A DNA stretch of 64,000 bases from an uncultured Planctomycetia bacterium (GCA_964536865.1 CAZHYN010000001.1:161824-225823), one strand, 5' to 3'; numbered from the stretch's first letter, positions 21,606 through 50,576 are shown. The notes: generated from the letters alone by a model not told the origin. Numbers and translations are program-made.

Positions 21606-22823
21606 ATGACAGCTAATATTATCCTGTTAGTCTTATTTATTTTTCTTTCTGCTTTTTTCTCCGCTTCCGAGACAGCAATCTTTTCTCTTAGTAAAGCAAG
21701 ATTTAGAAGATTGAAGGAAAGACATCCTTCGGCAAAAAGATTGAATCCTCTTTTTAGGAGTCCAAGTCTTACTCTTTCCACAATCGTATTTGGGAATATA
21801 TGGGTGAATATAGGTTTGGCTTCTCTCACTACCTCGGTGTTAGTAAGTATTTTCGGTCAGAGGGGTATAGTAGTCTCTATAATTTTCTCTGGAGTTATTA
21901 TCCTTTTCCTAGGAGAAGTTCTTCCTAAGAGTTTTGCTGTTTATGCCCCTGAGAGAATATCTTTATTTTCTGCCCCCCTCCTTTTACTTATTATGAGATT
22001 TTTTTATCCTATATTAACCTTGACACAGAAGATAGTAGATAGTACTTCTTACCTTTTCTTTAGGAGAGAAAAAGAAGAGAAGTTGTTCTCTGAAGATGAA
22101 TTAAGAGAGGCTCTCTTTTTTGGGAAAAAACATGGGGATATAACTCCAGTGGAAGAGGAGATGATTAGCTACGTACTAGAGTTTAAAGATACCTGTGTAA
22201 GTGAGGTTATGACTCCCCGGGTGGAGATTCAGGGTATTGAGATAAATTTATCCCATCAGAGTGTAATGGATAGTTTAAAGAGTATAAGACATTCCAAACT
22301 CCCCGTGTATAGAGAATCTCTAGATAATATCGTAGGTATTCTCTACGCTAAGGATATTTTCTTGAATCCTCATCAGGATTGGAAAAAATTCTTAAGGTCT
22401 CCTCTCTTTGTTCCCGAAAGTAAAAAAATAGATGATCTTCTTAGAGAATTTCTCAGTAAAAATGAACACATCGCTATCGTTTTAGATGAATATGGAGGTA
22501 CTTCCGGTTTAGCCACTTTAGAAGATATCGAAGAGGAGATTTTTGGGGAAATCTATGATGAGTTTGAGATTCCTTATAAGATGATTGAGCAGATTGAAGA
22601 AAGGAAATGGCGAGTATATGGAAAAGTCCCTCTTAAGACATTAAATTTAGAGTTAGATTTAAATCTTCCTGAGGAGGAAGATACAGTAGCCGGGCTTATT
22701 CTCTCTAAACTGGAAAGAATTCCCCATACTCAAGAGAGATTAAAAATAGGGGAAGTAGAGTTTGTTATAGAGAGAGCTACTGCTCGTCGAATAATAAGTG
22801 TAATTTTAAACATTGAAAAATGA
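21606..22823 (+). CDS. CNNM/DUF21–CBS pair–CorC_HlyC transporter-associated protein (HlyC/CorC family)
   Basis: N-terminal DUF21 TM domain, tandem CBS domains and a C-terminal CorC_HlyC domain. Confidence 0.85.
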   Translation: MTANIILLVLFIFLSAFFSASETAIFSLSKARFRRLKERHPSAKRLNPLFRSPSLTLSTIVFGNIWVNIGLASLTTSVLVSIFGQRGIVVSIIFSGVIILFLGEVLPKSFAVYAPERISLFSAPLLLLIMRFFYPILTLTQKIVDSTSYLFFRREKEEKLFSEDELREALFFGKKHGDITPVEEEMISYVLEFKDTCVSEVMTPRVEIQGIEINLSHQSVMDSLKSIRHSKLPVYRESLDNIVGILYAKDIFLNPHQDWKKFLRSPLFVPESKKIDDLLREFLSKNEHIAIVLDEYGGTSGLATLEDIEEEIFGEIYDEFEIPYKMIEQIEERKWRVYGKVPLKTLNLELDLNLPEEEDTVAGLILSKLERIPHTQERLKIGEVEFVIERATARRIISVILNIEK

Positions 22824-23767
22824 TCTATCTATTAGGTGCTCTGGCATTCTTTCTTCTCCAAGGATTTTTTTCCGCCAGTGAGATGAGCTTTATCTCTTCC
22901 AGTCTCCTTAAACTTGCCCATCGGCAACATAAGGATAGAAGGGCAAGATTAGTTTACCAGCTTATCTCTAATCCTGAGCGGTTTCTTGCTACCACTTTGG
23001 TAGGAACAAATTTATCCGTAGTAGTAAGTTCTACTTTAGCTACCTACTTTCTCATAGAGTTAGGTATCGCTAATAGTAATCTGTGGATTACTTTTCTATT
23101 TACTCCGGTAGTAGTGATTTTTGCTGAGTTAGTTCCTAAGAACATCGGTCGAAGTTATCGGGAAGAGTTAGCTACTTATTTAGCAAGACCATTTACTTTC
23201 TTCCAGACTCTTTTTTCACCCTTTGTTTACGCTATAGAGAAAGTGTCTGTTTCCTTAACAGAGTTCTTCTTAAGTAAGGAGAAGAAGAGATCCTTATTTG
23301 TTACTAAGGAGGAGATAAAAGCTTTAATAGCTGAAGGAGAGAAAGAAGGAGTGTTAGAGAAGGGAGAGAAGGAGGCCATTGAAGACGTCTTCCAGTTTAG
23401 AGAGACTAAATTGAAAGATGTATGTATTCCTCTGAAAGAGGTAAAAGTTTTAGATTACAATTATTCTGTAGAGAAAGTAAAAGAGATAGCAAAGATTTAT
23501 AAATTCACCCGCTATCCTGTTGTTAAAAATAAAGTGATAGTAGGATATCTTAATATCTTCGATTTATTCTACCGAGAAGGTAAAGATTGGCATACCCTTA
23601 TCCGTCCTATTACTCATTTAGGAGGAAGTCAAAGATTGTATCAAGCTTTTTACATACTTAAGGCTAAGAGAGAAACTATGGCTATAGTAATGAAAGGAAA
23701 GAAAAGTTTAGGAATCGTTACTTTAGAAAGTCTTATGAGAGAGATCTTAAACTCTATCGCTAAGTAA
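22820..23767 (+). CDS. DUF21–CBS domain protein, tandem paralog lacking a clear CorC C-terminus
   Basis: Similar DUF21 TM region and a CBS pair; start overlaps the upstream stop. Confidence 0.7.
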   Translation: MIYLLGALAFFLLQGFFSASEMSFISSSLLKLAHRQHKDRRARLVYQLISNPERFLATTLVGTNLSVVVSSTLATYFLIELGIANSNLWITFLFTPVVVIFAELVPKNIGRSYREELATYLARPFTFFQTLFSPFVYAIEKVSVSLTEFFLSKEKKRSLFVTKEEIKALIAEGEKEGVLEKGEKEAIEDVFQFRETKLKDVCIPLKEVKVLDYNYSVEKVKEIAKIYKFTRYPVVKNKVIVGYLNIFDLFYREGKDWHTLIRPITHLGGSQRLYQAFYILKAKRETMAIVMKGKKSLGIVTLESLMREILNSIAK

Positions 23768-23768
23768 C

Positions 23769-24341
23769 TTAGTTAGTTAAAAGGTTTTTTAATTCCTCTG
23801 CAGAGATGCAAATTATCCCTAATTTCTGTGCCCACTTTATTACTCCCTTATCAGAAGTAGCTAGATAGGCAGACAATTCTTTAGAAAGAAGGATTAGGTC
23901 AAAATCCTCTTTACTGTCAATAATTCCTTCTCTTAAAGCAAATCGATATTCATTTCTCAAATTTTTAATAATTTCTTCCTCTTTAGCTCCTCTTAGTCCT
24001 TTTCGAGAGTGTTTCTCTGCCACTCTCAGACCCTTGTTTATTCGTGTTCTTATTTCCTCAATGAATTCGTAGAGCAGAATAGCAGGAATAGGAATTTCAT
24101 ACTTAGAGGGAGGCTTTCTATCTATAAGAGAAAGTCTTGGGGATACTTTCTTAATCTCCACAAAATTTAGTAGTTCATTAAAAACTGAAGGAGGCATAAA
24201 ACAAGTAACATTGCTTTTTTTCTCCAAGAGATGCAAAAAATTATTTATCGCTTCTTCAATAGATTTACCGAAGAGAAATCGAGTATCAGGGTTTATAAAA
24301 ATATTAGCATCCAGAACTACCTTTATTTCTTTTCTCTTCAT
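23769..24341 (-). CDS. PIN-domain (predicted nuclease) protein
   Basis: VVLDANIFI N-terminal acidic motif and C-terminal ATSDKGVIKWAQKLGI, typical of the PIN fold; 190 aa, no adjacent antitoxin-like ORF. Confidence 0.5.
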   Translation of the reverse strand: MKRKEIKVVLDANIFINPDTRFLFGKSIEEAINNFLHLLEKKSNVTCFMPPSVFNELLNFVEIKKVSPRLSLIDRKPPSKYEIPIPAILLYEFIEEIRTRINKGLRVAEKHSRKGLRGAKEEEIIKNLRNEYRFALREGIIDSKEDFDLILLSKELSAYLATSDKGVIKWAQKLGIICISAEELKNLLTN

Positions 24342-24454
24342 TAGGAAATATTTTAAGGCTAATTCTTACTTTCTTCAATACATTTCTGGAGTAGAAACAT
24401 TTTTCAAAGAGGAGGTTTGCAAATATTCTTGGGGTTGATAAAATAGTTATATCT

Positions 24455-25495
24455 ATGAAGGAAGGATACAATCTTTCCAATTTTGGATATACCTTTCCTT
24501 CTTACTTAATTGCTCAAAGACCTTTAGAAGAAAGGGATCAGGCTCGTCTTCTTGTTGTGGACCGTAAGTTAGGCACTTTTAAAGAAGGTGTTTTTAAAGA
24601 TATAACCAATTTTTTAAAGGAAGGGGAAGTGTTAGTTTTAAATAATACCAAGGTTGTAAGGGCGAAAATATTTGGGAGAAAATCTACGGGAGCAAGGCTG
24701 GAGTTTCTTCTTCTAAAGGAGATAGAAGGTAAAGGGAGGTGGGAAGCCTTAATTAAGAAGCGTAGGCGCCTTAAGTTAGGAGAGGAAGTAGTTTTTGAGG
24801 GAGGGTTTAAGGCAAAGCTGGTAGAGAAAACCTCCCAGGGTACAGCAATATTAGAGTTTTCTCCTCCTTCGATCGGTTCTTTCATAGAAAAATATGGAGA
24901 GATACCTCTTCCTCCTTACATTAAAGAAGAGTTAAAAGAGCCCAGTTACTATCAGACAGTTTTTGCTAAAAAAGAAGGAGCAGTAGCTGCTCCTACTGCA
25001 GGACTTCACTTTACTCCTTCTCTTCTCAAAGAGATTCAATGCAAAGGAGTGAAAGTTGTTTATCTTACCCTTCATTGTGGATTAGCTACTTTCCGACCTG
25101 TGAAGACTCAGGATATAAGAGAACATCTTATGGAGGAGGAATATTTCTGTATTCCTAAAGAGACTGCTTCAGTTATTAATGAAGCAAAACTTCACAATAG
25201 GAGAATTATCGCTGTAGGGACTACGGTAGTGAGAGCTCTGGAGAGTTGTGCTCAAGAAAAAGGAGAGAAACCTACAGTTATTCCAGGAGAGGGAAGGACT
25301 TCTCTCTATATCTTTCCTGGATATAAGTTCAAGATAGTTGATGCCCTAATTACTAATTTTCACACTCCTTATTCTACAAATCTAATCTTAGTATCTACCT
25401 TCTGTGGATTAGAGTTAACTAAGAGAGCTTACCTCTATGCAATTAAAAGAGAGTTTAGATTCTTCAGTTTTGGTGATACGATGTTTATCGGCTAA
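24455..25495 (+). CDS. queA: S-adenosylmethionine:tRNA ribosyltransferase-isomerase
   Basis: YxLPxxLIAQRP..ERDxxRLLV N-terminus and overall QueA length and architecture. Confidence 0.9.
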   Translation: MKEGYNLSNFGYTFPSYLIAQRPLEERDQARLLVVDRKLGTFKEGVFKDITNFLKEGEVLVLNNTKVVRAKIFGRKSTGARLEFLLLKEIEGKGRWEALIKKRRRLKLGEEVVFEGGFKAKLVEKTSQGTAILEFSPPSIGSFIEKYGEIPLPPYIKEELKEPSYYQTVFAKKEGAVAAPTAGLHFTPSLLKEIQCKGVKVVYLTLHCGLATFRPVKTQDIREHLMEEEYFCIPKETASVINEAKLHNRRIIAVGTTVVRALESCAQEKGEKPTVIPGEGRTSLYIFPGYKFKIVDALITNFHTPYSTNLILVSTFCGLELTKRAYLYAIKREFRFFSFGDTMFIG

Positions 25496-25542: not shown

Positions 25543-25571
25543 TTGACGTAAGAGATTATTTTTAATATAAT
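25543..25571 (+). promoter_or_regulatory. sigma70-like promoter (TTGACG -17- TATAAT) for the EF-G paralog operon
   Basis: TTGACG at 25543-25548 and TATAAT at 25566-25571; AAGGAGA RBS before the ATG at 25596. Confidence 0.45.
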
Positions 25572-25595: not shown

Positions 25596-27593
25596 ATGCT
25601 TCAAGGTTTAGAGAAAAAGAAGACTTTTCTTCTCTGTGGTCATGCTCAGACAGGAAAGACCTCTCTAGCTGAGGCGATACTTTATCAATGTGGTGTTACT
25701 TCCCGCTTAGGAAAGGTAGAGGAGGGTACAACCGTTAGCGATTATGAGGAGGATGAGAAGGAAAGGAAAAGTTCCATAAACCTTTCGGTAGTTAATGCTC
25801 ACTATAAGGATAGCTATCTCCAATTTATAGATACTCCAGGATACCTAGACTTTGTGGGAGAGTTAGTAGCCTCCGCTCGAGCAGTCAATTTTGCTGTAAT
25901 TGTAGTGAGTGCATCCTCAGGAGTAGAAGTAGGTACAGAAAAGGCTTGGGAGATTGTAAGAAAGGAAAACTTACCTTGTTTATTTTTTATTAATCAACTA
26001 GATAAAGAAAATGCTGATTACACTAAAGTTGTTGAGCAGATTCAGAAGAATTTAGCTAAAAAAGCTACTTCCTTTGCTGTTTTTGAAAAAAATACTGTAA
26101 CTGATGTTTTAAAAAATAAAGACAGAGCGCCTTCTCTCTATAACGAGATTGTTGAGAAGGTAGCAGAAAGTGACGATGCCTTATTAGAGAAGTATTTAGA
26201 TAAAGGAGAGTTGGAAGAGAAGGAATTAATTCTTGCTTTAAAGAGAGCGATTGTAAATTCTCAGATTTTCCCAGTAATAGGTGGAATAGCTACTCAGCAG
26301 TTAGGAGTAGAGCTACTCTTAGATTTGATTAATGAGATTATGCCTTCCGCAGGGGATTGCTTACCTAAGAAGGCTAAGGATGCTCAATCCAACCCGTTAG
26401 AGATAAATCCTACAGATTCCTTCTTTACTGCTCAGGTTTTTAAAACTGTGGTAGATCCTTACGTAGGCCAGCTTAGTATCTTTAGAGTTTTTTCTGGTTC
26501 TATTACTTCTAACAGTGAAGTTTATAATGCCACCCGGCGAATCAAGGAGAAGGTTGGCCAACTTTATACTCTTCAAGGTAAACAGCAGAGTCCTGTGGAT
26601 AGACTCTCTTCTGGGCAGATCGGTGCAGTAGCAAAGCTAAAAGATACTCATACCCAGGATACGTTGACAGAGGCTTCCAAGATCTTAGAATTCCCTCCTA
26701 TTGAATTTCCTTCTCCTGTATACTCAGCTTCAGTAAAGCCTAAGACCCGTCAGGATGAAGAGAAGATCTCTACTGCTTTAGGCCGCCTTGCTAGTGAGGA
26801 CCCCACTTTTAAAGTATCTAGAGATGTTCAGACAAAGGAATTAATTATCTCTGGTATGGGAGAGTTACATCTGAATGTGATTATTGAAAGGATGAGGAGG
26901 AAGTATTCTGCTAATGTGGAGTTAGGTACTCCTAAGGTTCCCTATAAGGAAACGGTGACTAAATCTGTGAAAGTTCAAGGTAAGTATAAAAAACAGACGG
27001 GAGGTAGAGGTCAATACGGAGATGTATGGATTGAAGTGGAGCCTCTGGAGAGGGGAAAGGAGTTTGAATTTGTAGATAAGATTGTAGGAGGAGCCATTCC
27101 TAGAAATTTTATCCCTTCAGTGGAGAAAGGGATAAGAAAGGCTATGGAAGAGGGAATCTTAGCCGGTTATCCAGTAACCGACATTAGAGTCACTCTCTAC
27201 GACGGTTCTTATCATCCTGTAGATTCTTCAGATATCGCTTTCCAAATTGCTGGATCCATGGCTCTTAAACAGGCTTTAGAACAAGCTAATAGTGTGCTTC
27301 TAGAGCCAATTATGAATGTAGAGATAATAGTTCCTGAGGAATTTATGGGACAGATTACAGGAGATATAAATGCTCGTAGAGGTAGGGTGTTGGGAATGGA
27401 GATAAAAGGAAGGAACCAAGTGGTGAGGGCCCAGATTCCCTTAGGAGAAATGTTCAAATATGCCTCAGATCTACGTTCAGTCACCGGAGGAAGAGGTACC
27501 TACTCTATGAGTTTTTCCCACTATGAAATAGTCCCCGCAAGGTTATCTCAGAGCATAATCGAGATGGCTAAAAGAGAGAAGAAAGAAGGCTAG
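25596..27593 (+). CDS. Elongation factor G-family GTPase paralog (EF-G2-like) with divergent G1/G2 motifs
   Basis: G1 GHAQTGKTS, G3 DTPGYLDF, G4 NQLD; domains II–V in EF-G order; the G2 region RKSSIN diverges from canonical RGITI. Confidence 0.85.
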   Translation: MLQGLEKKKTFLLCGHAQTGKTSLAEAILYQCGVTSRLGKVEEGTTVSDYEEDEKERKSSINLSVVNAHYKDSYLQFIDTPGYLDFVGELVASARAVNFAVIVVSASSGVEVGTEKAWEIVRKENLPCLFFINQLDKENADYTKVVEQIQKNLAKKATSFAVFEKNTVTDVLKNKDRAPSLYNEIVEKVAESDDALLEKYLDKGELEEKELILALKRAIVNSQIFPVIGGIATQQLGVELLLDLINEIMPSAGDCLPKKAKDAQSNPLEINPTDSFFTAQVFKTVVDPYVGQLSIFRVFSGSITSNSEVYNATRRIKEKVGQLYTLQGKQQSPVDRLSSGQIGAVAKLKDTHTQDTLTEASKILEFPPIEFPSPVYSASVKPKTRQDEEKISTALGRLASEDPTFKVSRDVQTKELIISGMGELHLNVIIERMRRKYSANVELGTPKVPYKETVTKSVKVQGKYKKQTGGRGQYGDVWIEVEPLERGKEFEFVDKIVGGAIPRNFIPSVEKGIRKAMEEGILAGYPVTDIRVTLYDGSYHPVDSSDIAFQIAGSMALKQALEQANSVLLEPIMNVEIIVPEEFMGQITGDINARRGRVLGMEIKGRNQVVRAQIPLGEMFKYASDLRSVTGGRGTYSMSFSHYEIVPARLSQSIIEMAKREKKEG

Positions 27594-28261
27594 TGAAAAT
27601 TTTTACTCCCCAAGAGCAACTTTTAGGGAAGAAGATTTATCGAGATAAAAGTCTTAAGAAGTTAGAGGAAAAATTTAAGCCTAAAAAGGTCACTTACTTC
27701 AGTGGAGAGTTTATTTCTACTAAAGAAAGCTGTGATGTGATTCTTCTGGATGAGAAAACACTTTTAGATTTTGTTGTGGAAGATATGGAAAAGTTAGAGG
27801 GACTTCTAGGTAAAGAAAAAGAAGAGTTAGTGAAGAAAGCTTTGAGAGTTTTAGATAAGGGTAAACCTTTATTTACAGAATTAGATGAAAAAGAGAGAGA
27901 TGAGCTTAAAGATTATAACCTTATCACTTTAAAGCCAGTGGTTTTCCTAGAAGGAGACCAAGATTTAGATACCCTATGGGAGAGGATTTTTGAAACAGCA
28001 GGAGTTATCTTTTTTTATACTGTCAATAAGAATGAAGCTAGAAGCTACCCTACTAAAGAGGGAACCGACATTGTTTCTTGCGCAGGAAAAGTCCATAGTG
28101 ATCTAGCAAGAGGTTTTATAAGAGCAGAGGTTTTCAACATTAAAGATATAGATAGCTTTCATAATTTAGAAGAAGCAAGGCAGAGAAGGTTCCTGAAGGT
28201 AGTGGGTAAAGATTATATCGTAGTTCATGGAGATGTAATTAACATAAAATTTAGCGTTTAG
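27593..28261 (+). CDS. YchF/Ola1 C-terminal-like protein (helical domain plus TGS domain) lacking the N-terminal P-loop GTPase domain
   Basis: LITLKPVVFL...IFFYTVNKNEARSYPTKEGTDIVSCAGKVHSDLARGFIRAEVFN...GKDYIVVHGDVINIKF aligns with the YchF C-terminal half (GFIRAEV, DGDV..F); there are no G1–G3 motifs; the GTG start overlaps the EF-G stop. Confidence 0.6.
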   Translation: MKIFTPQEQLLGKKIYRDKSLKKLEEKFKPKKVTYFSGEFISTKESCDVILLDEKTLLDFVVEDMEKLEGLLGKEKEELVKKALRVLDKGKPLFTELDEKERDELKDYNLITLKPVVFLEGDQDLDTLWERIFETAGVIFFYTVNKNEARSYPTKEGTDIVSCAGKVHSDLARGFIRAEVFNIKDIDSFHNLEEARQRRFLKVVGKDYIVVHGDVINIKFSV

Positions 28262-28263
28262 AT

Positions 28264-29778
28264 ATGCTAAAGATACGTAGAGCCTTAATCAGCGTGTGGG
28301 ATAAAAGAGGAATAATAGATTTTGCTAAGAAGTTGAAGAGCTTAAATATAGAGATAATCTCTACCGGTAAGACAGCCTCACTGTTGAGGAGAAGTAAGAT
28401 AGATGTAAAGACTGTCTATTCTATCACTTCCTTCCCGGAGATTCTTTCTGGGAGAGTGAAGACTCTCCATCCTCGAGTATTTGGAGCAATTTTAGCTAAT
28501 AAAAAACACCCTTTACATATGGAAGATTTAAAGAATTTAGGTATAGAACCTATCGATATGGTAGTAGTTAATTTCTATCCTTTCCCCAAAATGGTTAAGG
28601 AGAAAGTAAGTTTTGACCAGATGTTAGAGTATATTGATATTGGGGGACCAGCGATGCTTAGAGCAGCAGCCAAAAATTTTAAAAACGTAGCTTGTGTAAG
28701 TTCTCCTCAACAGTATAGGAGGATTATTGAGGAATTAGAGAAGAATAGAGGAATGTTAAAGGAAGAGGCTCTAAGAGAACTCGCCTGTGAAGTTTTTCGT
28801 ATTACTAAAGATTACGATACTGCTATCTATGGTTTTTTAAAGAAGAGAGAGGTTTTAGTATGGGATTTAGAGAAGATTTCTCATTTACGCTACGGAGAGA
28901 ATCCCCACCAGAAAGGGGAACTATTCAAACTTTCTACTGAGGAGGGAGTAGGTTTCCGTCAGATTCAAGGAAAACACCTTTCTTTTAATAATCTCCTTGA
29001 CTTAGATACTGCCTTAAGTTTAGTGAAAGATTTTAACGAACCTACAGTTACAATTATAAAGCATGCTTCTCCTTGTGGAGTAGCTCAGGACAAAAAACTT
29101 TTCCGTGCTTTCCTTAAAGCTCATCAGGCTGATCCTGTTTCTAGCTTTGGAGGAATAGTGGGATTAAACAGGAAGGTTGATGGCAAAACTGCCAAGGAGG
29201 TATTGAAAAGTGACTTTAAAGAATGCATAATTGCTCCCAGTTATTCTAAAGAGGCATTGAGACTTTTTTCTTCCAAAAGAAATCTGCGCATAATAGAAGG
29301 GAACTTTGTTAAGTCTACTAAATACAAAGACATAAGAAGGATAGTATTTGGATACCTTCTTCAGGATCCCGATGAAGTTACTTGTGAAAAGAACCTCCTT
29401 AAGGTAGTTACCAAAAAGAAACCTACTGACAAAGAGTGGAAAGATTTACTTTTTGCCTGGAGAGTAGTTAAGTTCGTAAAATCTAATGCCATTGTAATAG
29501 CTAAAAATAGAATTACTCTGGGCATAGGAGGAGGACAGCCTTCTCGAGTGGGAGCAGTGGAGCTTGCTATTAAGAGAGCTTATAAATCTCCTAAAGGGGC
29601 AGTGTTGGCTAGCGATGGCTTCTTTCCTAAAACAGATTCTATAAAATTAATGAAGAAGTATGGTATAAGGTCCATTATCCAACCGGGAGGTTCCATTAGG
29701 GATAAAGAGATTATAGAAATTTGCAATAAATTAAACATCTCTATGGTTTTCACAGGTATCCGCCACTTCCGCCATTAA
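28264..29778 (+). CDS. purH: Bifunctional AICAR transformylase / IMP cyclohydrolase
   Basis: N-terminal MGS-like domain (RALISVWDKRGI) and a C-terminal AICARFT domain; 504 aa. Confidence 0.9.
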   Translation: MLKIRRALISVWDKRGIIDFAKKLKSLNIEIISTGKTASLLRRSKIDVKTVYSITSFPEILSGRVKTLHPRVFGAILANKKHPLHMEDLKNLGIEPIDMVVVNFYPFPKMVKEKVSFDQMLEYIDIGGPAMLRAAAKNFKNVACVSSPQQYRRIIEELEKNRGMLKEEALRELACEVFRITKDYDTAIYGFLKKREVLVWDLEKISHLRYGENPHQKGELFKLSTEEGVGFRQIQGKHLSFNNLLDLDTALSLVKDFNEPTVTIIKHASPCGVAQDKKLFRAFLKAHQADPVSSFGGIVGLNRKVDGKTAKEVLKSDFKECIIAPSYSKEALRLFSSKRNLRIIEGNFVKSTKYKDIRRIVFGYLLQDPDEVTCEKNLLKVVTKKKPTDKEWKDLLFAWRVVKFVKSNAIVIAKNRITLGIGGGQPSRVGAVELAIKRAYKSPKGAVLASDGFFPKTDSIKLMKKYGIRSIIQPGGSIRDKEIIEICNKLNISMVFTGIRHFRH

Positions 29779-29804
29779 TTAACTCATTTTTAGTTGTTCA
29801 CTTT

Positions 29805-31130
29805 ATGTCCACCTACAAAGAAATAGAAAGTTATCTCGATACATTTATTAACTATGAGAAGAAGATTTTTTTCTCTTATCGAAAGTCTTTAAAACTAGGA
29901 AGAGTAAGACACCTTCTCGAGGTCTTAAGAATTCCCTATCAGGAACTAGATGTAATACATATTGCTGGAACTAAAGGCAAAGGTTCAGTAGCTACTTTTT
30001 TAGCTTACCTCTTAGCTTCTTCTCGTTACAAGATAGGACTGTATACTTCTCCCCATTTTTATAATTTTAGAGAGAGAATAAAGATAGTAGAAAAGATAAA
30101 CTCTCAAATTAAGGAAACTCTTATTTCTAAAAGAGGAGTAGTAACTATTGTAGAGAAGTTTAAACCTTATCTAGAAATTTTGCGTTATAACCCTCAATGG
30201 GGTAAACTTACCTTCTTTGAGGTTTACACTGCTTTAGCTTTCTATTTTTTTTGTCAGCAAAATTTAGATTTCACAATTTTAGAAGTAGGATTGGGAGGTA
30301 GATTAGATGCTACTAATATAGTAACCCCTTTGGTCTCAGTAATTACTCATATTGGTTATGATCATACGCAAAAGTTAGGCAAGAGATTAAAAGATATCGC
30401 TTACGAGAAAGCAGGAATAATAAAAGAGGGTATACCCGTAGTAAGTTCTTGGCAGCGTCCTACAGTTTTAGAGGTAATCAAGAGGAGAGCAAAAACTTTA
30501 AATGCCCCTCTTTATATTCTAGGAAAAGATTTTGAGTTTAATAGGGTGAGAGTAAAGTCAAACTATACCCTTTTTGATTTTTGGTTTAATAAAACAAAGA
30601 TTTCTAACCTTAAGATAGCTCTTAAAGGTTTACATCAGGTAGAAAATGCTTCTCTAGCTTTAGCAACACTTTTGCTCCTCTTGGAGAAAAAAGAAGTAAA
30701 ATACTTAACAATTAAAGAAGCGTTATCAACTACTTTTCTTGAAGGTAGATTTGAGAGAATAAAAATGCAACCTCTTATAATTTTAGATATTGCTCATAAT
30801 CCTTCCTCTTTTGCTGCCTTGGCTTCCACTCTAGAAAAATATTTTCCCACCAGAGAGATTATTTTAATTTTTGCTGTCTCTAAAGACAAAGATGTTAAAA
30901 ATATGCTAAACAAGATAAAGTTCAAAAAGATAATTCTTACTACCTTCTCTAATCCTCGTAGCCTTCATCCTGACAAGATCGCAAGATTAGCATGCTTAAA
31001 AGAACCTATTTTAACTAGTAAGCCAAGAGAGGCTTTAAAAGTAGCGTTAAGGTTGTACAATAGAGATTCCTTGATTTTAGTTAGTGGTTCCTTATTTCTA
31101 GTAGCGGAGGTAAAAAAGTTGCTATTATGA
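29805..31130 (+). CDS. folC: Folylpolyglutamate synthase / dihydrofolate synthase (Mur ligase family)
   Basis: P-loop HIAGTKGKGS; Mur ligase middle and C-terminal domains. Confidence 0.85.
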   Translation: MSTYKEIESYLDTFINYEKKIFFSYRKSLKLGRVRHLLEVLRIPYQELDVIHIAGTKGKGSVATFLAYLLASSRYKIGLYTSPHFYNFRERIKIVEKINSQIKETLISKRGVVTIVEKFKPYLEILRYNPQWGKLTFFEVYTALAFYFFCQQNLDFTILEVGLGGRLDATNIVTPLVSVITHIGYDHTQKLGKRLKDIAYEKAGIIKEGIPVVSSWQRPTVLEVIKRRAKTLNAPLYILGKDFEFNRVRVKSNYTLFDFWFNKTKISNLKIALKGLHQVENASLALATLLLLLEKKEVKYLTIKEALSTTFLEGRFERIKMQPLIILDIAHNPSSFAALASTLEKYFPTREIILIFAVSKDKDVKNMLNKIKFKKIILTTFSNPRSLHPDKIARLACLKEPILTSKPREALKVALRLYNRDSLILVSGSLFLVAEVKKLLL

Positions 31131-32548
31131 GTACCTCTTTTCTTAAAGAATATAGCCTTAACGATACCATCGCTGCTATCGCCACCTACCCTGCTAAGAG
31201 TGCCTTAGGAGTAATTAAGATATCAGGGAAGAAAGCTTTAGAGATTCTTTCTAAGATATTTATCTCCAAGGGAAGAAAAGACATAAAGAAGTTACCTACC
31301 TATACTCTTCATTACGGATGGGTTATAGAAAAGAAGTCTCACTCAGAGAAGGGTGAAAGGGAAGAAGTTTTAGATGAGGTACTAGTAAGTGTAATGAGAG
31401 CTCCTTGCTCCTATACTAGAGAAGATGTGGTGGAAATTTCCTCTCATGGAGGGATCCTTGTTTTGAATAGAATCTTAGAGTTAGTGTTGAAGAAGGGAGC
31501 AAGGCTAGCTAACCCTGGAGAGTTTAGTTATCGGGCATTTATAAATGGGAGGATAGACTTAGTTCAGGCTCAAAGTATTTTAGATATTGTAGAAGCAAAA
31601 ACAGAGCAGGGGCTTTTAGCTGCTACCACTCATTTGAAAGGGAAAATTTCTAAGAAGATAGAAGAAATTGAGGAGAAGTTAAGAAATATCTTTTCCCAGA
31701 TAGAAGCTTCTATTCAATTTCCTGAAGAAGAAGTAAATATCTCTTTTGAGGAGATAAAAAGAGATGTTAGAAGGTTGAAAAAAGAGTTAGAAGAGCTAGT
31801 TAAAGCTTCCCGAGAAGGCCAGCTCATAAAAGAGGGGGTAAAGTGTGTAATATGTGGGAGAGCAAACGTAGGTAAGTCTACTCTTTTTAATCGTCTTCTT
31901 CAAGAAGAAAGGGTTATCGTAACTGAAGTTCCTGGGACTACTAGAGACGTAATTGAGGAGAATATAAACATAAAAGGTATTCCTTTAAGAATAGCTGATA
32001 CTGCAGGAATACTGGAACCTAAGGACTTGATAGATAAAGTAGCGTTAGAGAAGAGTTTGAAAAAGATTGCAGAAGCAGATTTAGTTTTATTTCTCTTAGA
32101 TTACTCTCAACCCTTAAGTAGAGAAGACTATCTCCTCTTAGATAAAATAAAAGATAAAAACGTTATTCTTGTAATCAATAAGATAGATTTAAAAAAAGGT
32201 TTAGATTTAAATGAGGTTAGAAAGTTTAACAAACCTAGGGTTAAATTGAGTGCTTTGAGAGGAGAGGGATTTTCTAATTTAGAGAAGGTAATCTTTAAGA
32301 ACCTACTGGGGAGGACAACTTTAAGGGGTTATGATTTAGTATTCTTAGCTCATAGACAGAAGGAGTTGCTTTCTCAGGCTTTTTCTAGCTTATCTCAAGG
32401 TATAGAGTATTGTGAGCAAGGTTACTCTCTAGATATTATAGGGCTTCTGTTAAAAGAAGCTTTAGATAGTCTTGCTAAACTTACTGGTAAGGTGGTAGAG
32501 GAAGAGGTTTTAAAGGAGATATTTTCTCGTTTCTGTATTGGTAAGTAA
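31127..32548 (+). CDS. mnmE: tRNA uridine-5-carboxymethylaminomethyl modification GTPase MnmE (TrmE)
   Basis: G domain (GRANVGKSTLFN, DTAG, NKID) and the C-terminal CIGK motif. Confidence 0.92.
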   Translation: MSTSFLKEYSLNDTIAAIATYPAKSALGVIKISGKKALEILSKIFISKGRKDIKKLPTYTLHYGWVIEKKSHSEKGEREEVLDEVLVSVMRAPCSYTREDVVEISSHGGILVLNRILELVLKKGARLANPGEFSYRAFINGRIDLVQAQSILDIVEAKTEQGLLAATTHLKGKISKKIEEIEEKLRNIFSQIEASIQFPEEEVNISFEEIKRDVRRLKKELEELVKASREGQLIKEGVKCVICGRANVGKSTLFNRLLQEERVIVTEVPGTTRDVIEENINIKGIPLRIADTAGILEPKDLIDKVALEKSLKKIAEADLVLFLLDYSQPLSREDYLLLDKIKDKNVILVINKIDLKKGLDLNEVRKFNKPRVKLSALRGEGFSNLEKVIFKNLLGRTTLRGYDLVFLAHRQKELLSQAFSSLSQGIEYCEQGYSLDIIGLLLKEALDSLAKLTGKVVEEEVLKEIFSRFCIGK

Positions 32549-32559
32549 CCAGGAAAGGA

Positions 32560-33123
32560 GTGGAGATGGATAGAAAAAAGATTGAGAAGGCAGTTAAGAT
32601 GATTATAGAGGCAGTAGGAGCTAACCTCAATAAGAAGGACTTGCTTGCTACTCCCCGTAGAGTAGCTCAGATGTATGAGGAGATACTAAAGGGAGAAAAG
32701 AGATCGCCCGAGAAAGAGCTGGATGTAATTTTAGAGCAGAAACACGATGAGATAATTCTTCTAAAAGACATACCTTTATATTCTCTCTGTGAGCATCATC
32801 TCCTTCCCTTTGCAGGAAAGGTTCATATTGCTTATATTCCCGACAAGCGGATTACAGGGCTAAGTAAAATAGTTAGAGTAGTGGAGATCTTATCCTCTAG
32901 ACTTCAAGTTCAAGAGAGGTTAACTACCCAGATTGCTGATGTGATTATGAAGAAATTGAAACCAAAGGGAGTAATGGTGGTAATTGAGGCAGAACATCTA
33001 TGTATGTCTATGCGGGGAGTTAAAAAACCTGGTGTTAAAGCGGTAACTAGTGTAGTAAGAGGAATTTTTCGTAAAAATCAGAAAACCCGTCAGGAAGGTT
33101 TAAGTCTAATATTTTCTAAGTAA
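32560..33123 (+). CDS. folE: GTP cyclohydrolase I
   Basis: SLCEHHLLPF catalytic motif; 187 aa. Confidence 0.92.
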   Translation: MEMDRKKIEKAVKMIIEAVGANLNKKDLLATPRRVAQMYEEILKGEKRSPEKELDVILEQKHDEIILLKDIPLYSLCEHHLLPFAGKVHIAYIPDKRITGLSKIVRVVEILSSRLQVQERLTTQIADVIMKKLKPKGVMVVIEAEHLCMSMRGVKKPGVKAVTSVVRGIFRKNQKTRQEGLSLIFSK

Positions 33124-46731: not shown

Positions 46732-47171
46732 GGATAGGTAAGAAGATAAACAAACTCTTAGGAGAAATTCTTGTAGAGAAGAGAATTATTACTAAAGAAC
46801 AGCTTAACGAGGCTTTAAAAGTTCAGGCTCAAGATGGAGGTTTGATTGGAGAGATAATTGTAAAGTTAGGTTTTGCTAGTGAAGAAGAGATTGCCCAATG
46901 TTTGTCTTATCAGTATGGCTTTGCCTACTTACCTTTAGATAGTTATGAGATTTCTCAAGAAGTAATAAGACTCGTTCCTAAGAATATTGTCTCTCATTAT
47001 TGTCTTATTCCATTAGATAGAATAGGAGATACACTTACAGTAGTAATGGCAAATCCCTTAAACTTGGAGGCAATAGAAGATATAGAAGACCTTACTCATC
47101 TAGAGGTGCAAGCTTTTATAAGTACTCCCACAGACATAAGAAATGCTATAAAGAAATACTATGGAGAGTGA
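46728..47171 (+). CDS. Stand-alone MshEN / T2SSE_N domain protein (predicted c-di-GMP binding)
   Basis: Two tandem 24-aa motifs matching the MshEN consensus RLGxxLLxxGxIxxxQLxxALxxQ: KLLGEILVEKRIITKEQLNEALKVQ and LIGEIIVKLGFASEEEIAQCLSYQ; translationally coupled on both sides. Confidence 0.7.
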   Translation: MRIGKKINKLLGEILVEKRIITKEQLNEALKVQAQDGGLIGEIIVKLGFASEEEIAQCLSYQYGFAYLPLDSYEISQEVIRLVPKNIVSHYCLIPLDRIGDTLTVVMANPLNLEAIEDIEDLTHLEVQAFISTPTDIRNAIKKYYGE

Positions 47172-48870
47172 GAAGTTAAAAAAAAGTTTTCCTCAAGTTC
47201 TTTTGGAGAAAGGAGAAATTACTCAAAAACAACTAAAGGAGGCTATAAGGTTTCAAAAGGAGAAGGGATGTTCTTTAAACGAAGCCTTTTTAAGTCTTGG
47301 ATACATAGATGAAAAGAAACTTTTGCTCCTTCTTTCCGCATATCTTTCTACACCCCCTATAAAAGTTCTGAATTTAAACATCCCCCCCCAAGTATTAAAA
47401 CTTATTCCTCAAGAAGTTGCTGTAAAGTATCAGTTAATTCCTATTGGAAGGATAGGGAATGTTCTCTCTGTAGCTATGGCTGATCCTTTAAATGTGGTAG
47501 CTTTAGATGATGTAGAGAGGATTACTAAGTGTCAGATAAATCCTGTGGTAGCACTAAGAAGTGAAATTAAGGAAGCAATAGATAATAACTACAGAAAATC
47601 CCTTGTTGATACGGTAGAAGAGATAATAAAGAACACTGAAATTGGTTCTATAGAGGTAATAAAGGAAGAGAAGGAAGCAGTAAAAGATGAGGAGATTTTG
47701 CGTTCTTTAGAAGAAGCGCCAGTAATTAAATTTTCCAACTATATTTTAAAGAGAGCGGTAGAAGAGAAAGCCTCCGATGTTCTTATAGAACCTTTATCTA
47801 AAAGTTCTCGCATACGCTTTAGAGTAGATGGGGTGTTAAGAGAGATAGAGTCTTTCTCCCGAAAGATGCATGAGTTTGTTGTTTCTCGAATAAAGGTTAT
47901 AGCCAATTTGAATATTACTGAACATCGCCTTCCTCAGGATGGAAGGTTCCGGATGAATATTTTGGGTAGAGAGGTAGATTTTCGTGTTTCTATTCTTCCT
48001 TCAGTTTTGGGAGAGAAAGTTGTTCTTCGTGTTTTAGATAAATCTCAAGGGTTATTGGACTTAGATAGCTTAGGATTTGAAGAAAGTTTAATCTCTCAGT
48101 TGAAGATTGATTCCGCCTCTTCTTGTGGAATGATTTTAGTATGTGGTCCTACTGGGTGCGGTAAAACCACCACTCTTTACTCTATTTTAAGGTACATCTA
48201 TACTCCAGAAAAAAATATTATTACCGTAGAAGACCCTATAGAGTATCAACTTCTTGGGATAAATCAGGTCAATGTTAACTATGAGGTAGGGCTCACCTTT
48301 GCTAATGCTCTCCGTTCTATACTAAGACAGGATCCCGATGTAATAATGGTAGGAGAGATTAGAGATTTTGATACTGTAGATATTGCTATAAAGGCAGCGT
48401 TAACAGGACATCTAGTTATATCTACTCTTCATACCACTACCGCAGTTGGTTCAGTAACTCGTCTTATAAATATGGGAGTTGAACCTTTTCTTTTGTCTTC
48501 CACTCTTATCGGTGTTCTTGCTCAGAGGTTAATAAGAAAGTTATGCCCTCATTGTCGAGAGGAAAGCAAGCTTAGCAGTTCCTTGAAAGAGAAGTATAAG
48601 ATTTCTCCCGATGCTACTATTTACAAACCTAAGGGATGTAAGTTTTGTTTTCACCAGGGATATAGAGGAAGATTAGCTTTAGGAGAGTATTTGCATGTAG
48701 ATTCTCAAATCAAGAGGTTGATAAGTATTTCTGCTGATGAGCATACTCTTAAGAAAGAGGCAAGAAAAGGAGGGATGAAAACTTTGCGAGATAATGGGAT
48801 ACAAAAAGTAGAAAAAGGATTAACTAGTTTAGAAGAAGTCCTAAAAGCTACTGGAGAAGAGATTGAGTAA
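47161..48870 (+). CDS. pilB: Type IV pilus / T2SS assembly ATPase (PilB/GspE/MshE family)
   Basis: N-terminal T2SSE_N domain, Walker A GPTGCGKTTT, Asp/His boxes, tetracysteine CPHC...CKFC. Confidence 0.9.
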   Translation: MESEKLKKSFPQVLLEKGEITQKQLKEAIRFQKEKGCSLNEAFLSLGYIDEKKLLLLLSAYLSTPPIKVLNLNIPPQVLKLIPQEVAVKYQLIPIGRIGNVLSVAMADPLNVVALDDVERITKCQINPVVALRSEIKEAIDNNYRKSLVDTVEEIIKNTEIGSIEVIKEEKEAVKDEEILRSLEEAPVIKFSNYILKRAVEEKASDVLIEPLSKSSRIRFRVDGVLREIESFSRKMHEFVVSRIKVIANLNITEHRLPQDGRFRMNILGREVDFRVSILPSVLGEKVVLRVLDKSQGLLDLDSLGFEESLISQLKIDSASSCGMILVCGPTGCGKTTTLYSILRYIYTPEKNIITVEDPIEYQLLGINQVNVNYEVGLTFANALRSILRQDPDVIMVGEIRDFDTVDIAIKAALTGHLVISTLHTTTAVGSVTRLINMGVEPFLLSSTLIGVLAQRLIRKLCPHCREESKLSSSLKEKYKISPDATIYKPKGCKFCFHQGYRGRLALGEYLHVDSQIKRLISISADEHTLKKEARKGGMKTLRDNGIQKVEKGLTSLEEVLKATGEEIE

Positions 48871-48887
48871 GGCCTAAGAGGTAACTT

Positions 48888-50576
48888 ATGGAGTCTTTAA
48901 GAGAAAGAATACTTAAGGATGTTGTAGAAAGAAAAGGGGTAGATAAGAGTATTCTAGATAGGATTAATAAAGAATCAAAGAATATCTATCAACTGAAAGA
49001 GAATCTCATTAAGAATAACATAGTCAGCGAAGAAGAGATTTTACTTATTTTCTCTAAGGAGCTTAAGATTCCCTTTTTTGATTTGGGGAAATATAAGGTT
49101 TCTTCAGAAAATAAGGAGATAATACCCAAAGAGTTAGCCTTTAAATATAAAGTATTTCCCATATCTAAGATAGGAGAGGTATTAACCTTAGCTACAGCTA
49201 ATCCTCTAGATGTTGTAGCCATTGATGATATAAAGATGGTTTGCTCCTTAAACAGAGTGGAGCTAGTATTGGCGAAGGAGGAGGAGATTATAAGATTCCT
49301 AGATGAGCTTTATTCTCAAGAAAAGATTTTTCCTCTTTTAGAGGAGGCTCCGCAAGATGCAGAGGTTCAAGAGGTCTCTTATAAGGGAGAGGAGAGTTTA
49401 GAGAAAGTTATTAAGGAAAGTAATCTCCCCCCTATTATAAGAGTGGTGGATTTGATTATCTACGAAGGATTAAAGAGGAGGGCTTCCGATATCCATATAG
49501 AGCCTACAGAAAAAGATTTATCTATAAGGTATAGGATAGATGGAGTTCTTCATCATGGTTTGAGTCTTCCTAAGATTAATCAAAATGCTATTTTGGCGAG
49601 ACTGAAGATTATGTCTTCTTTAAATATTACTGAGTTCAGGGTTCCTCAGGATGGAAGATTTAAAATAAAATTTGAAAATAGGGAGATAGATTTTAGAGTT
49701 TCGTCTCTTCCCACTGATTTTGGAGAGAAGATAGTGTTAAGGGTTTTAGATAAAGAGAGCCTCTCCTTAGGGCTCAAAAACTTAGGTTTTTCTCCCAGAC
49801 CTTTAAAGTTATTTGAAGAAGCCTTAAAAGCCCCCTTTGGCATAATTCTTGTTACTGGCCCTACGGGCAGTGGTAAGTCTACCACCCTTTACTCAGTAAT
49901 CACCCAACTAAATACTCCGGACAAAAGTATTATCACTATAGAGGATCCTGTAGAGTATCAAATAGAGGGCATTACTCAAATTCAAGTAAATCCTGAAATC
50001 GGCCTTACCTTTGCTTCCTGTTTAAGGAGTGTATTGCGTCAGTCTCCTGATATAATAATGGTAGGAGAAATTCGAGACTCAGAAACTGCTGATATTGCTA
50101 TTAAAGCTTCTCTTACAGGAGAATTAATATTTTCTACCTTGCATACCAATAACTCTGTGGGAGCAATTACTCGGTTAGTGGATATGGGAGTGGAGCCATT
50201 TTTGGTGGCTTCTTCTTTAATCGCTTCTACTGCTCAGAGGCTAACAAGAAGAGTCTGCCCCAAGTGTAAGGAGGAGTATAAACCCGATAAGGAGCTATTA
50301 AAGAGAATTAACTTTCCTCCTTTTTCAGGGAAGTTATATAAGGGTAAGGGCTGTGAGTTCTGTCATTATACTGGCTATAGGGGGAGGACAGCACTTTTAG
50401 AAGTTTTTTCCTTAGATGATAGTTTAAGAGAGATGGTGGCAAAGAGAGCTAGTGAAGAGGAGTTAACTAATTATGCCCGCAAGCATCGCGATTTTAGCTC
50501 ACTAAAAGAAGATGGGTTTATAAAATGTATTGAGGGGGTATCGAGTTTAGAGGAAGTTTTAAGGGTAGCAGGTTAG
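48888..50576 (+). CDS. Second PilB/GspE-family assembly ATPase, a paralog
   Basis: Walker A GPTGSGKSTT, CPKC...CEFC zinc motif; about 50% identical to the upstream ATPase in the core. Confidence 0.9.
   Translation: MESLRERILKDVVERKGVDKSILDRINKESKNIYQLKENLIKNNIVSEEEILLIFSKELKIPFFDLGKYKVSSENKEIIPKELAFKYKVFPISKIGEVLTLATANPLDVVAIDDIKMVCSLNRVELVLAKEEEIIRFLDELYSQEKIFPLLEEAPQDAEVQEVSYKGEESLEKVIKESNLPPIIRVVDLIIYEGLKRRASDIHIEPTEKDLSIRYRIDGVLHHGLSLPKINQNAILARLKIMSSLNITEFRVPQDGRFKIKFENREIDFRVSSLPTDFGEKIVLRVLDKESLSLGLKNLGFSPRPLKLFEEALKAPFGIILVTGPTGSGKSTTLYSVITQLNTPDKSIITIEDPVEYQIEGITQIQVNPEIGLTFASCLRSVLRQSPDIIMVGEIRDSETADIAIKASLTGELIFSTLHTNNSVGAITRLVDMGVEPFLVASSLIASTAQRLTRRVCPKCKEEYKPDKELLKRINFPPFSGKLYKGKGCEFCHYTGYRGRTALLEVFSLDDSLREMVAKRASEEELTNYARKHRDFSSLKEDGFIKCIEGVSSLEEVLRVAG

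Follow-up and report, generated by a model that had tools for sequence, protein, structure and literature searches.

A reduced form of the ribosome-binding ATPase YchF, herein termed mini-YchF, is encoded in a stretch of 64,000 nucleotides from an uncultured Planctomycetia bacterium (GCA_964536865.1, CAZHYN010000001.1:161824-225823), which is referred to as the window, has a GC content of about 35%, and constitutes with its 64 kb the whole of the genome at hand. The gene is a 222-aa open reading frame (ORF) on the plus strand (27593..28261), and it follows, with a stop/start overlap, the gene of a 665-aa paralog of elongation factor G (EF-G) designated as EF-G2 (25596..27593, plus strand). Both ORFs had been placed at these coordinates by the initial annotation of the window, and they were recovered there by ORF calling. 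Confidence is high as regards the identity and the evolutionary origin of mini-YchF. The favored explanation as a whole, in which mini-YchF is a functional YchF derivative and in-situ ortholog of ychF that is coupled to EF-G2 and acts as a passive ribosome factor, is considered moderately probable.

Identity and architecture of mini-YchF

The GTG start of mini-YchF is regarded as real because the homologs begin with MKI(F/G) exactly at the equivalent position; an alternative start further upstream was rejected, the ORF being stop-bounded and its N-terminus conserved. In the Pfam search, residues 139-220 were assigned to YchF-GTPase_C (PF06071; E 6e-23, 81 bits vs a cut-off of 27), with a match spanning profile positions 2-83 of 84 and no unrelated family being assigned, which bears out the derivation from YchF proposed by the initial annotation. 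The correspondence of GFIRAEV and GKDYIVVHGDVINIKF with the YchF consensus, also pointed out there, was reproduced by alignment. The TGS family (PF02824) reached 18.7 bits on the window protein vs a gathering threshold of 22.2; a precomputed PF02824 match is present on many members of the mini-YchF family, and isolated TGS domains were weak Foldseek matches (3hvz, E 4e-3). The YchF equivalog model TIGR00092 scored 83 bits, below its cut-off of 279.2 (NCBIfam), and the NCBIfam and Pfam searches returned no model specific to the mini-YchF family. Assemblies of NCBI, ENA and Logan contain the identical 222-aa protein, the largest of the contigs concerned reaching 245 kb, and 'DUF933 domain-containing protein [Candidatus Omnitrophota bacterium]' is the name of one member of the cluster to which it belongs at 90% identity. 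In databases, mini-YchF goes by 'DUF933 domain-containing protein' or else carries the incorrect name 'ribosome-binding ATPase YchF', and nothing on the family, or on a natural truncated or G-domain-less YchF, was found in the literature search.

Comparison by hhalign with 25 full-length YchFs (prob 100, E 4e-65) revealed that mini-YchF covers YchF residues ~38-365 with internal deletions. The profile of an alignment of 22 short homologs (A1), which was used for profile matching and for AlphaFold2, matches 1JAL collinearly in three pieces, namely 5-43 = 34-72, 63-131 = 133-210, and 132-230 = 265-363. Four deletions, which together make mini-YchF about 140 residues shorter than YchF, are discernible. 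The first takes away YchF residues 1-37 and with them part of strand b1, the P-loop, helix a1 and switch I, and the second removes some 40 residues that surround G3 and switch II. The coiled coil is shorter by about 10 residues at its tip, and about 55 residues, G5 included, are missing from the interval that separates the LTxKP strand (G4) from the last G-domain helix. Neither the G1/P-loop nor DxxG (G3) nor NxxE (G4) was detected in the window protein by motif inspection and hhalign, in line with the lack of a P-loop and other G-motifs in this ORF reported by the initial annotation, and a P-loop was found in 0/53 metagenomic mini-YchF copies. EFIST-KES takes the place of DxxGL, and FLEGDQD that of VxNxxE. 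The N-terminus reads MKIFTPQEQLLGKKIY, and the family carries at this position G-x5/6-GK followed by K, V or E, without helix a1. Since the four deletions leave only a sheet, a hairpin and a TGS-like domain, mini-YchF is predicted to be unable to bind or hydrolyze ATP, and an ATPase activity is excluded by the lost motifs.

The AlphaFold2 model of mini-YchF, built with A1, gave a pLDDT of 93.6 and a pTM of 0.85, and it comprises a small sheet (strands 2-4, 12-16, 32-41, 49-52 and 116-118), a hairpin (54-69/77-88) and a TGS-like domain (138-220). A Foldseek search of the PDB returned YchF/OLA1 structures as all 15 best matches, with a query-normalized TM of up to 0.84 (Thermus YchF). Along the gene, which is read from the plus strand throughout, residues 1-52 (27593..27748) form a vestigial G-domain sheet with the first four strands and a helix at 19-28, the P-loop, a1, switch I, G3 and switch II having been lost. 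Residues 54-108 (27752..27916) correspond to the YchF a4-a5 coiled-coil hairpin with a short tip, followed by two short helices, and the hairpin helices 54-69 and 77-88 align with 1JAL 133-210, their tip being about 10 residues shorter. Residues 109-137 (27917..28003) contain the strand LITLKPVVF, at the position of the YchF G4 strand and with NxxE lost, which is joined directly to the last G-domain helix. The TGS-like PF06071 domain (residues 138-222 and stop codon, 28004..28261) bears the motif HSDLARGFIRAEV with the invariant H168, D170, G174, F175 and E179; the remaining invariant positions in A1 (n = 11) are K2, G12, K13, D18, D64 and F141. Judged from the alignments and the model, mini-YchF represents an entire YchF from which the elements for nucleotide binding have been excised, and it is more than a C-terminal module alone. 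The description as a helical plus TGS C-terminal module in the initial annotation holds with respect to the hairpin and PF06071, and it fails in that the alignment starts at about YchF residue 38 and a remnant of the G-domain sheet is kept.

A maintained family at the ychF locus

In a word-indexed search, at least 47 short clusters at 90% identity (195-234 aa, a few of them partial) ranked ahead of full-length YchFs. When 1.84 billion representatives at 50% identity were searched exhaustively with HMMER, 8740 YchF-like sequences emerged, of which about 31 qualified as complete mini forms, being 225-235 aa long and aligned in one collinear stretch. An identical set of deletions, together with a conserved N-terminus, characterizes about 80 sequences. 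The dN/dS of mini-YchF against the 86%-identical ortholog in locus L095 was 0.13, the values for the EF-G gene and purH being 0.08 and 0.05, respectively.

The gene order of the window is EF-G, mini-YchF, purH, folC, mnmE and folE. In two loci of other Omnitrophota (L086 and L087), the order is ribonucleotide reductase, a 337-aa YchF with P-loop, purH, folC, mnmE and folE, and on the 1.43-Mb CP070780.1 (L085) a 339-aa YchF is followed by a 191-aa ORF, folC and mnmE. It is most likely that mini-YchF is the in-situ ortholog of ychF in the lineage of the window rather than an extra fragment, the main argument being that it occupies the same slot before purH-folC-mnmE-folE as the 337-aa YchF. Omnitrophota YchFs of 337-339 aa with a P-loop make up at least about 55 clusters, and a smaller group of 316-335 aa is also present; they are often named 'DUF933 domain-containing protein' or 'redox-regulated ATPase YchF'. 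The 337-339-aa forms (L085-L091) have kept P-loop, DxxG and NxxE, with short switch regions and a weak or faint Pfam match to MMR_HSR1, and the 316-335-aa forms (L030:9881-10831, L041:4163-5176) have lost the G5 region in addition. A neighbor-joining (NJ) tree of 132 sequences over 229 shared columns, which is distance-based and shallow, grouped all 80 mini forms in one clade (152/200 bootstraps) and placed the 316-335-aa forms, weakly (50/200), as its sister. The size series of ~361, 338, ~320 and ~230 aa thus looks like a stepwise erosion of the ATPase domain.

Mini forms were also encountered beyond the Omnitrophota in a scan of genome contigs, which is a sample rather than a census and is unable to show absence. 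Among the matches listed, stop-bounded forms of 229-234 aa came from metagenome-assembled genomes (MAGs) labeled Desulfobacterota/Syntrophobacterales, Elusimicrobiota, Lentisphaerota, Fibrobacterota, Marinimicrobia, Hydrogenedentes, Poribacteria, Latescibacteria, SAR324, Acidobacteriota (4.2-Mb contig) and Verrucomicrobiota. These loci, here called class B, range in GC from 36 to 68%, and their mini forms nest inside the mini clade of the NJ tree, which fits, with modest support, a horizontal spread of mini-YchF to other phyla. At two loci from other phyla (L013:8273-9958 and L025:32-1216), an ABC-F translational ATPase, called EttA-like by eye and thus a further ribosome factor in the vicinity, is located directly upstream of mini-YchF with gaps of 30 and 279 nt.

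Two further accounts of the origin have to be weighed here. One might suspect that the ORF has been called wrongly or that it is what is left of a rearranged ychF in decay, a pseudogene, since it is 140 aa shorter than YchF, since its GTG start overlaps another gene, and since it scores 83 bits against the 279 of TIGR00092. The dN/dS of 0.13 and the conserved family led to the rejection of the pseudogene reading, whose probability is practically negligible; the recurrence of the same deletions in about 80 sequences, the pLDDT of 93.6 and the stop-bounded ORFs of 229-234 aa in many genomes speak against it as well. A split gene with its G domain encoded nearby was also ruled out, for tblastn of three full-length YchFs against the 64-kb window found only the 222-aa ORF, with no G-domain fragment or second ychF-like sequence; nor was there in the window a frameshifted ychF G domain, which the initial annotation had listed among the findings that would count against its reading. 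Its suggestion of a remnant of a rearranged ychF is consequently not upheld in the sense of a pseudogene, and it survives in the evolutionary sense, the gene sitting in the ychF slot upstream of purH. A different proposition is that mini-YchF is an extra paralog beside a normal YchF, serving as a nucleotide-independent, dominant-negative competitor or regulator at the same ribosomal site. With ychF present in 99.4% of non-CPR genomes (PMC12641178), class-B hosts such as Acidobacteriota and Desulfobacterota probably keep one, a single mini clade with nested forms from other phyla fits the horizontal spread of an accessory gene, and Omnitrophota-labeled MAGs with a P-loop YchF do exist. We nevertheless hold this to be distinctly unlikely for the lineage of the window, where the ancestral position of ychF ahead of purH is taken by mini-YchF and no second ychF-like sequence lies within the 64 kb. 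Among the matches listed, no 338-aa form could be assigned to a 1.82-Mb mini-bearing chromosome and no mini form to the 1.43-Mb chromosome with the 339-aa form, a weak argument given that the contigs are mostly fragmentary.

Coupling to EF-G2 and the surrounding gene array

The junction of the two genes reads GGCTAGTGAAA, in which the G of the EF-G2 stop codon TAG is the first base of the mini-YchF start codon GTG. This TAGTG overlap (27591..27595, plus strand), with a purine-rich AAGAAGG just upstream, constitutes a translational-coupling junction, and the overlap noticed in the initial annotation is confirmed. The same or equivalent junctions (TAGTG, GTGA, ATGA or abutting TAA-GTG) were observed at seven loci (L095, L092, L093, L003, L007, L019 and L024) and at 21 metagenomic loci. 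EF-G2 is situated directly upstream of mini-YchF in 12 of the 14 informative syntenic loci, that is, in the window and in 11 others (L002, L003, which is the same place as L004, L007, L019, L024, L026, L044, L065, L092, L093 with L094, and L095). Two loci are uninformative for the pair owing to an assembly gap (L001) and a contig edge (L028). L001 (CP070807.1, an Omnitrophota chromosome recorded as 'complete') was considered as a mini-YchF locus devoid of EF-G and was rejected because of an N run directly upstream and a 5'-truncated gene; this run of 100 N (L001:7901-8000) explains the 195-aa 'partial' annotation and hides any upstream EF-G2. An EF-G-seeded metagenome scan gave 80 loci, 72 with enough downstream sequence, and in 53 of the latter a P-loop-less mini-YchF (218-234 aa) comes next, followed by purH. 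Within these 53, an overlap of -1 or -4 nt was found in 21 (~40%) and a gap of 1-6 nt in 11. A further 17 of the 72 were in other contexts, all at no more than 54% identity to the EF-G of the window. The flank upstream of EF-G2 varies (queA, rpoD, DJ-1, KilA-N), and the EF-G/mini-YchF/purH junctions persist. Beside a 337-339-aa YchF, EF-G2 was present in 0/4 loci. The initial annotation had put forward a two-gene pairing, and the pair, far from never co-occurring elsewhere, does recur (12/14 and 53/72); it is embedded in a larger purH-folC-mnmE-folE array, and mini-YchF also occurs without EF-G2. The adjacency probably arose once, so that the loci are not independent events. At L104, the YchF-like ORF has only 62 aa, and this locus, together with L120 and L121, looks like secondary loss or disruption of mini-YchF; at L024:8349-9968, EF-G2 is split into 165 and 496 aa upstream of an intact mini-YchF, which may reflect a frameshift, a pseudogene or an assembly error.

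The EF-G2 of the window displays G1 GHAQTGKTS, G2 ERKSSI, G3 DTPGYLDF and G4 NQLD, a short G' and intact domains II-V. All five EF-G domains scored above cut-off (PF00009, PF22042/PF03144, PF14492, PF03764 and PF00679; Pfam), and NF009381 (PRK12740.1-5) reached 878 bits vs a cut-off of 583 (NCBIfam); the protein fails the NF009377 EF-G2 model (598 vs 890). The core of the G domain obtained its best score, 107 bits, against T. thermophilus EF-G2 (1wdt), canonical EF-G giving 90-94, and the motifs GHAxxGKT, G(R/K)VEEGTT, DxPGYxDFVGE and xxLDK are common to the window protein and 1wdt. EFG II is marked by G1 GhxxxGKT with Gly at position 16, by relaxation of the G2 RGITI to xxxSx, and by G' deletions (Margus et al. 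2011, PMC3150367), and it is always accompanied by another EF-G (PMC3150367). In the window protein, ERKSSI stands opposite ERGITI, RGITI thus being relaxed with Ser as its fourth residue, and about 25 residues are gone from G', where Thermus EF-G 162-214 is matched by residues 158-183. The deviant G1 (GHAQTGKTS) and G2 (ERKSSI for ERGITI) to which the initial annotation drew attention are real, and they correspond to the known EFG II/EF-G2 signature. No second EF-G was found within the 64-kb window. Where DTPGH has its catalytic His, the window EF-G2 and all 8 orthologs adjoining mini-YchF carry Tyr, and the metagenomic relatives, as far as readable, carry Tyr or Phe without exception. M. smegmatis EF-G2, which carries the same His to Tyr exchange, exhibits ribosome-dependent GTP hydrolysis at a minimal level, and H88Y nearly abolishes the GTPase of EF-G1 (bioRxiv 10.64898/2026.05.25.727771); the same preprint reports Thermus EF-G2, also with Tyr, as active. 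In the literature searched, no EF-G2 was described as translationally coupled to a YchF derivative. The G4 NQLD (26008-26019) differs from NK(I/M/T)D in seven compared orthologs, the Lys of NKxD having been lost only in the close lineage.

Downstream on the plus strand, purH (AICARFT/IMPCHase; 28264..29778) begins 2 nt after the mini-YchF stop and is conserved as the downstream neighbor of mini-YchF and of the 337-aa Omnitrophota YchF alike. It is followed by a conserved same-strand array (29805..33123) of folC (29805-31130), mnmE (31127-32548) and folE (32560-33123), and purH-folC-mnmE-folE is conserved as strongly as the EF-G2 neighbor. A promoter-like TTGACG-17-TATAAT (25543..25571, plus strand; 11/12) is located in the 100-nt gap between queA and EF-G2; it is a candidate for the start of the transcription unit and a consensus match only, in a region where the number of such sites is not above that of shuffles. 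No terminator-like site was detected on the plus strand over 25596-31438. The two observations are consistent with a putative single transcript, without constituting proof. The gene order of window 21606-25495, namely two CNNM/CorC-type genes, an opposite-strand PIN_5 ribonuclease and queA, followed by EF-G2, is also found in L092. Two tandem genes for PilB/GspE-type secretion ATPases (569 and 562 aa, both T2SSE + MshEN) occupy window 47161-50576. Near the 337-339-aa ychF, a 63-67-aa ORF upstream of the ribonucleotide reductase gene matched the magnetosome protein MamI in Pfam (L085:4015-4209, L086:5136-5339, L087:920-1123 and L088:5270-5461), and giant ORFs lie near ychF in Omnitrophota contigs (L086:1-2930 and L088:10295-17020), whose products of 3834 and 4284 aa have almost no Pfam matches.

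Proposed ribosome link, significance and known relatives

E. coli YchF binds the intersubunit face of the 50S subunit at uL14, bL19 and H62, mainly via its a4-a5 helical domain, with a further contact from the ATPase domain and with the TGS domain proposed to reach the 30S subunit (PMC11814078). The ATPase-deficient H114A variant is trapped on the 50S subunit and was used to capture the complex, and YchF favors subunit splitting and blocks re-association (PMC11814078). By analogy, mini-YchF would bind the large subunit through its hairpin and TGS-like domain, which are kept in YchF geometry. As these two elements are kept and the nucleotide switch is gone, the protein may bind ribosomes passively and thereby park them or keep the subunits from joining, with an occupancy set by its concentration. 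Translational coupling would tie its level to that of EF-G2, giving a fixed ratio with an EF-G2 impaired in hydrolysis. The chances of nucleotide-independent ribosome binding, an expectation derived from the analogy with YchF, are judged about even, and a specific functional partnership between mini-YchF and EF-G2 is a tentative and somewhat doubtful proposition. A bolder picture, in which mini-YchF and the His-less EF-G2 form a hydrolysis-free device for ribosome parking or the slowing of translation that spares energy in ultra-small, energy-limited cells, with ychF replaced at its own locus in a broad Omnitrophota clade and mini-YchF passing horizontally into at least 10 other phyla later, is speculative and of low probability.

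Several points weigh against the explanation favored here. The H62-contacting lysine tip of E. coli YchF (K149/K152/K156/K159) is shortened to LLGKEKEE in the subgroup of the window, and the a7 contact of the YchF ATPase domain falls in a segment deleted from mini-YchF. As a whole protein, EF-G2 scores 600 bits against canonical Thermus EF-G and 453 against 1wdt, and it marginally passes the TIGR00484 EF-G equivalog (665.9 vs 659.4). The His to Tyr exchange is no proof of GTPase loss, which is likely and not certain because the Tyr-bearing Thermus EF-G2 is reported active. EF-G2 is absent before mini-YchF in L029 and L032, where the flanking ATP-grasp and radical-SAM genes are kept. In 2 of the 72 seeded loci (L120 and L121), EF-G2 leads straight into purH (EF-G2 end +4 nt) with no YchF-like gene between, and at least 21 class-B loci have neither EF-G nor purH nor any conserved neighbor. 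The pairing may be operon packing only, the purH adjacency being as tight (2 nt) and older than that of EF-G2. For a possible lack of a full-length ychF in this genome, the sole hint is that, among the matches listed, mini forms and 338-aa forms were never placed on contigs of the same length. Finally, identity, architecture, motif loss, selection, synteny and coupling signals are matters of observation, and it is ribosome binding, its site and the cooperation with EF-G2 that we infer.

Two other functional accounts were compared with that of a passive ribosome factor. One is an obligate two-protein machine, which corresponds to the main reading of the initial annotation: the GTPase body that targets the ribosome would come from EF-G2, and mini-YchF would serve it as a dedicated cofactor in a physical complex on the ribosome. 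Such a machine would be in keeping with a pair that persists at identities as low as ~50% for EF-G2 and ~30% for mini-YchF and that is found in 53/72 seeded and 12/14 syntenic loci, with overlaps in 21/53 that favor stoichiometric co-production, with the preservation of the junction under a varying upstream flank, and with the restriction of EF-G2 to the P-loop-less form (0/4 loci with the 337-339-aa YchF). It is nonetheless considered unlikely, in view of the class-B loci without a partner or conserved neighbor, the partnerless mini-YchF of L029 and L032 and the partnerless EF-G2 of L120 and L121; moreover, adjacency alone does not single out EF-G2 when purH, folC, mnmE and folE are equally conserved, and the known YchF site (uL14/bL19/H62) differs from that of EF-G. 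This equally conserved array could instead point to a function away from the ribosome that is linked to the folate, purine and tRNA-modification genes, in which the TGS-like domain might, for instance, serve purH, folC, mnmE or folE by binding RNA or a small ligand. The junction of the ychF slot with these genes is kept for the 337-aa and mini forms and predates the EF-G2 adjacency, and the window, L092 and L024 have queA on the upstream side. There is, however, no known biochemical link between YchF and these enzymes, class-B loci lack such neighbors, and the structural homologs found by Foldseek are all ribosome-associated Obg-family proteins, which renders this role very improbable.

YchF/OLA1, among the most widely retained NTPases associated with translation, serves as a bac120 marker and occurs in 99.4% of the bacterial genomes outside the CPR (PMC12641178); its function is still debated, current models being centered on the ATPase cycle. 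That a family reduced to hairpin, TGS-like domain and the stub of a sheet is under purifying selection implies that the scaffold has a selectable function without nucleotide, and mini-YchF offers a natural separation-of-function variant for asking what the ATPase adds. A natural YchF ortholog without a nucleotide site would be surprising and useful to specialists in translation factors, its function being one that we infer. From a practical viewpoint, marker and annotation pipelines based on TIGR00092/K06942 will miss mini-YchF or mislabel it as an ATPase, and a bias may arise in completeness estimates of Omnitrophota that use the YchF marker. The recurrent coupling to a His-less EF-G2 is undescribed in the literature searched and provides a concrete lead on the poorly understood EFG II subfamily.

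Among known systems, the closest is YchF/OLA1 itself, an Obg-family P-loop ATPase (TIGR00092; 1JAL, 2DBY/2DWQ, 2OHF, 8KIE), to which mini-YchF is homologous from residue ~38 to the C-terminus. They share the helical hairpin, PF06071 with HSDLxRGFIRAEV and GKDYIVxDGDV, and the fold arrangement (TM 0.84), and they differ in that mini-YchF has none of G1, G2, G3, G4 and G5, lacks about 140 residues including the P-loop helix and switch II, and bears a shorter hairpin tip. The Omnitrophota YchFs of 316-339 aa (L030, L041 and L085-L091) belong to the same phylum, and their 337-aa form occupies the same slot upstream of purH-folC-mnmE-folE; in contrast with mini-YchF, they keep Walker A (GLSGCGKST, GYSGSGKTA) and DxxG, as well as NxxE in the 338-aa form, and EF-G2 was a neighbor in 0/4 of the loci examined. 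The upstream partner resembles EFG II/EF-G2 (1WDT; M. smegmatis 9K0Z/9K10) in the five-domain body, the G1 Gly (GHxxxGKT), the relaxed G2, the G' deletion and the Tyr of DxPGYxDFVGE, and it departs from them in domains II-V, which are nearer to canonical EF-G than to Thermus EF-G2, and in the G4 NQLD of the window copy. RsfS and eIF6 are nucleotide-independent factors that bind uL14 and block subunit joining. For mini-YchF, a functional analogy with these two factors is proposed, that of a small non-NTPase on the uL14 face, which is drawn only from the YchF-50S structure and would unite proteins of unrelated folds.

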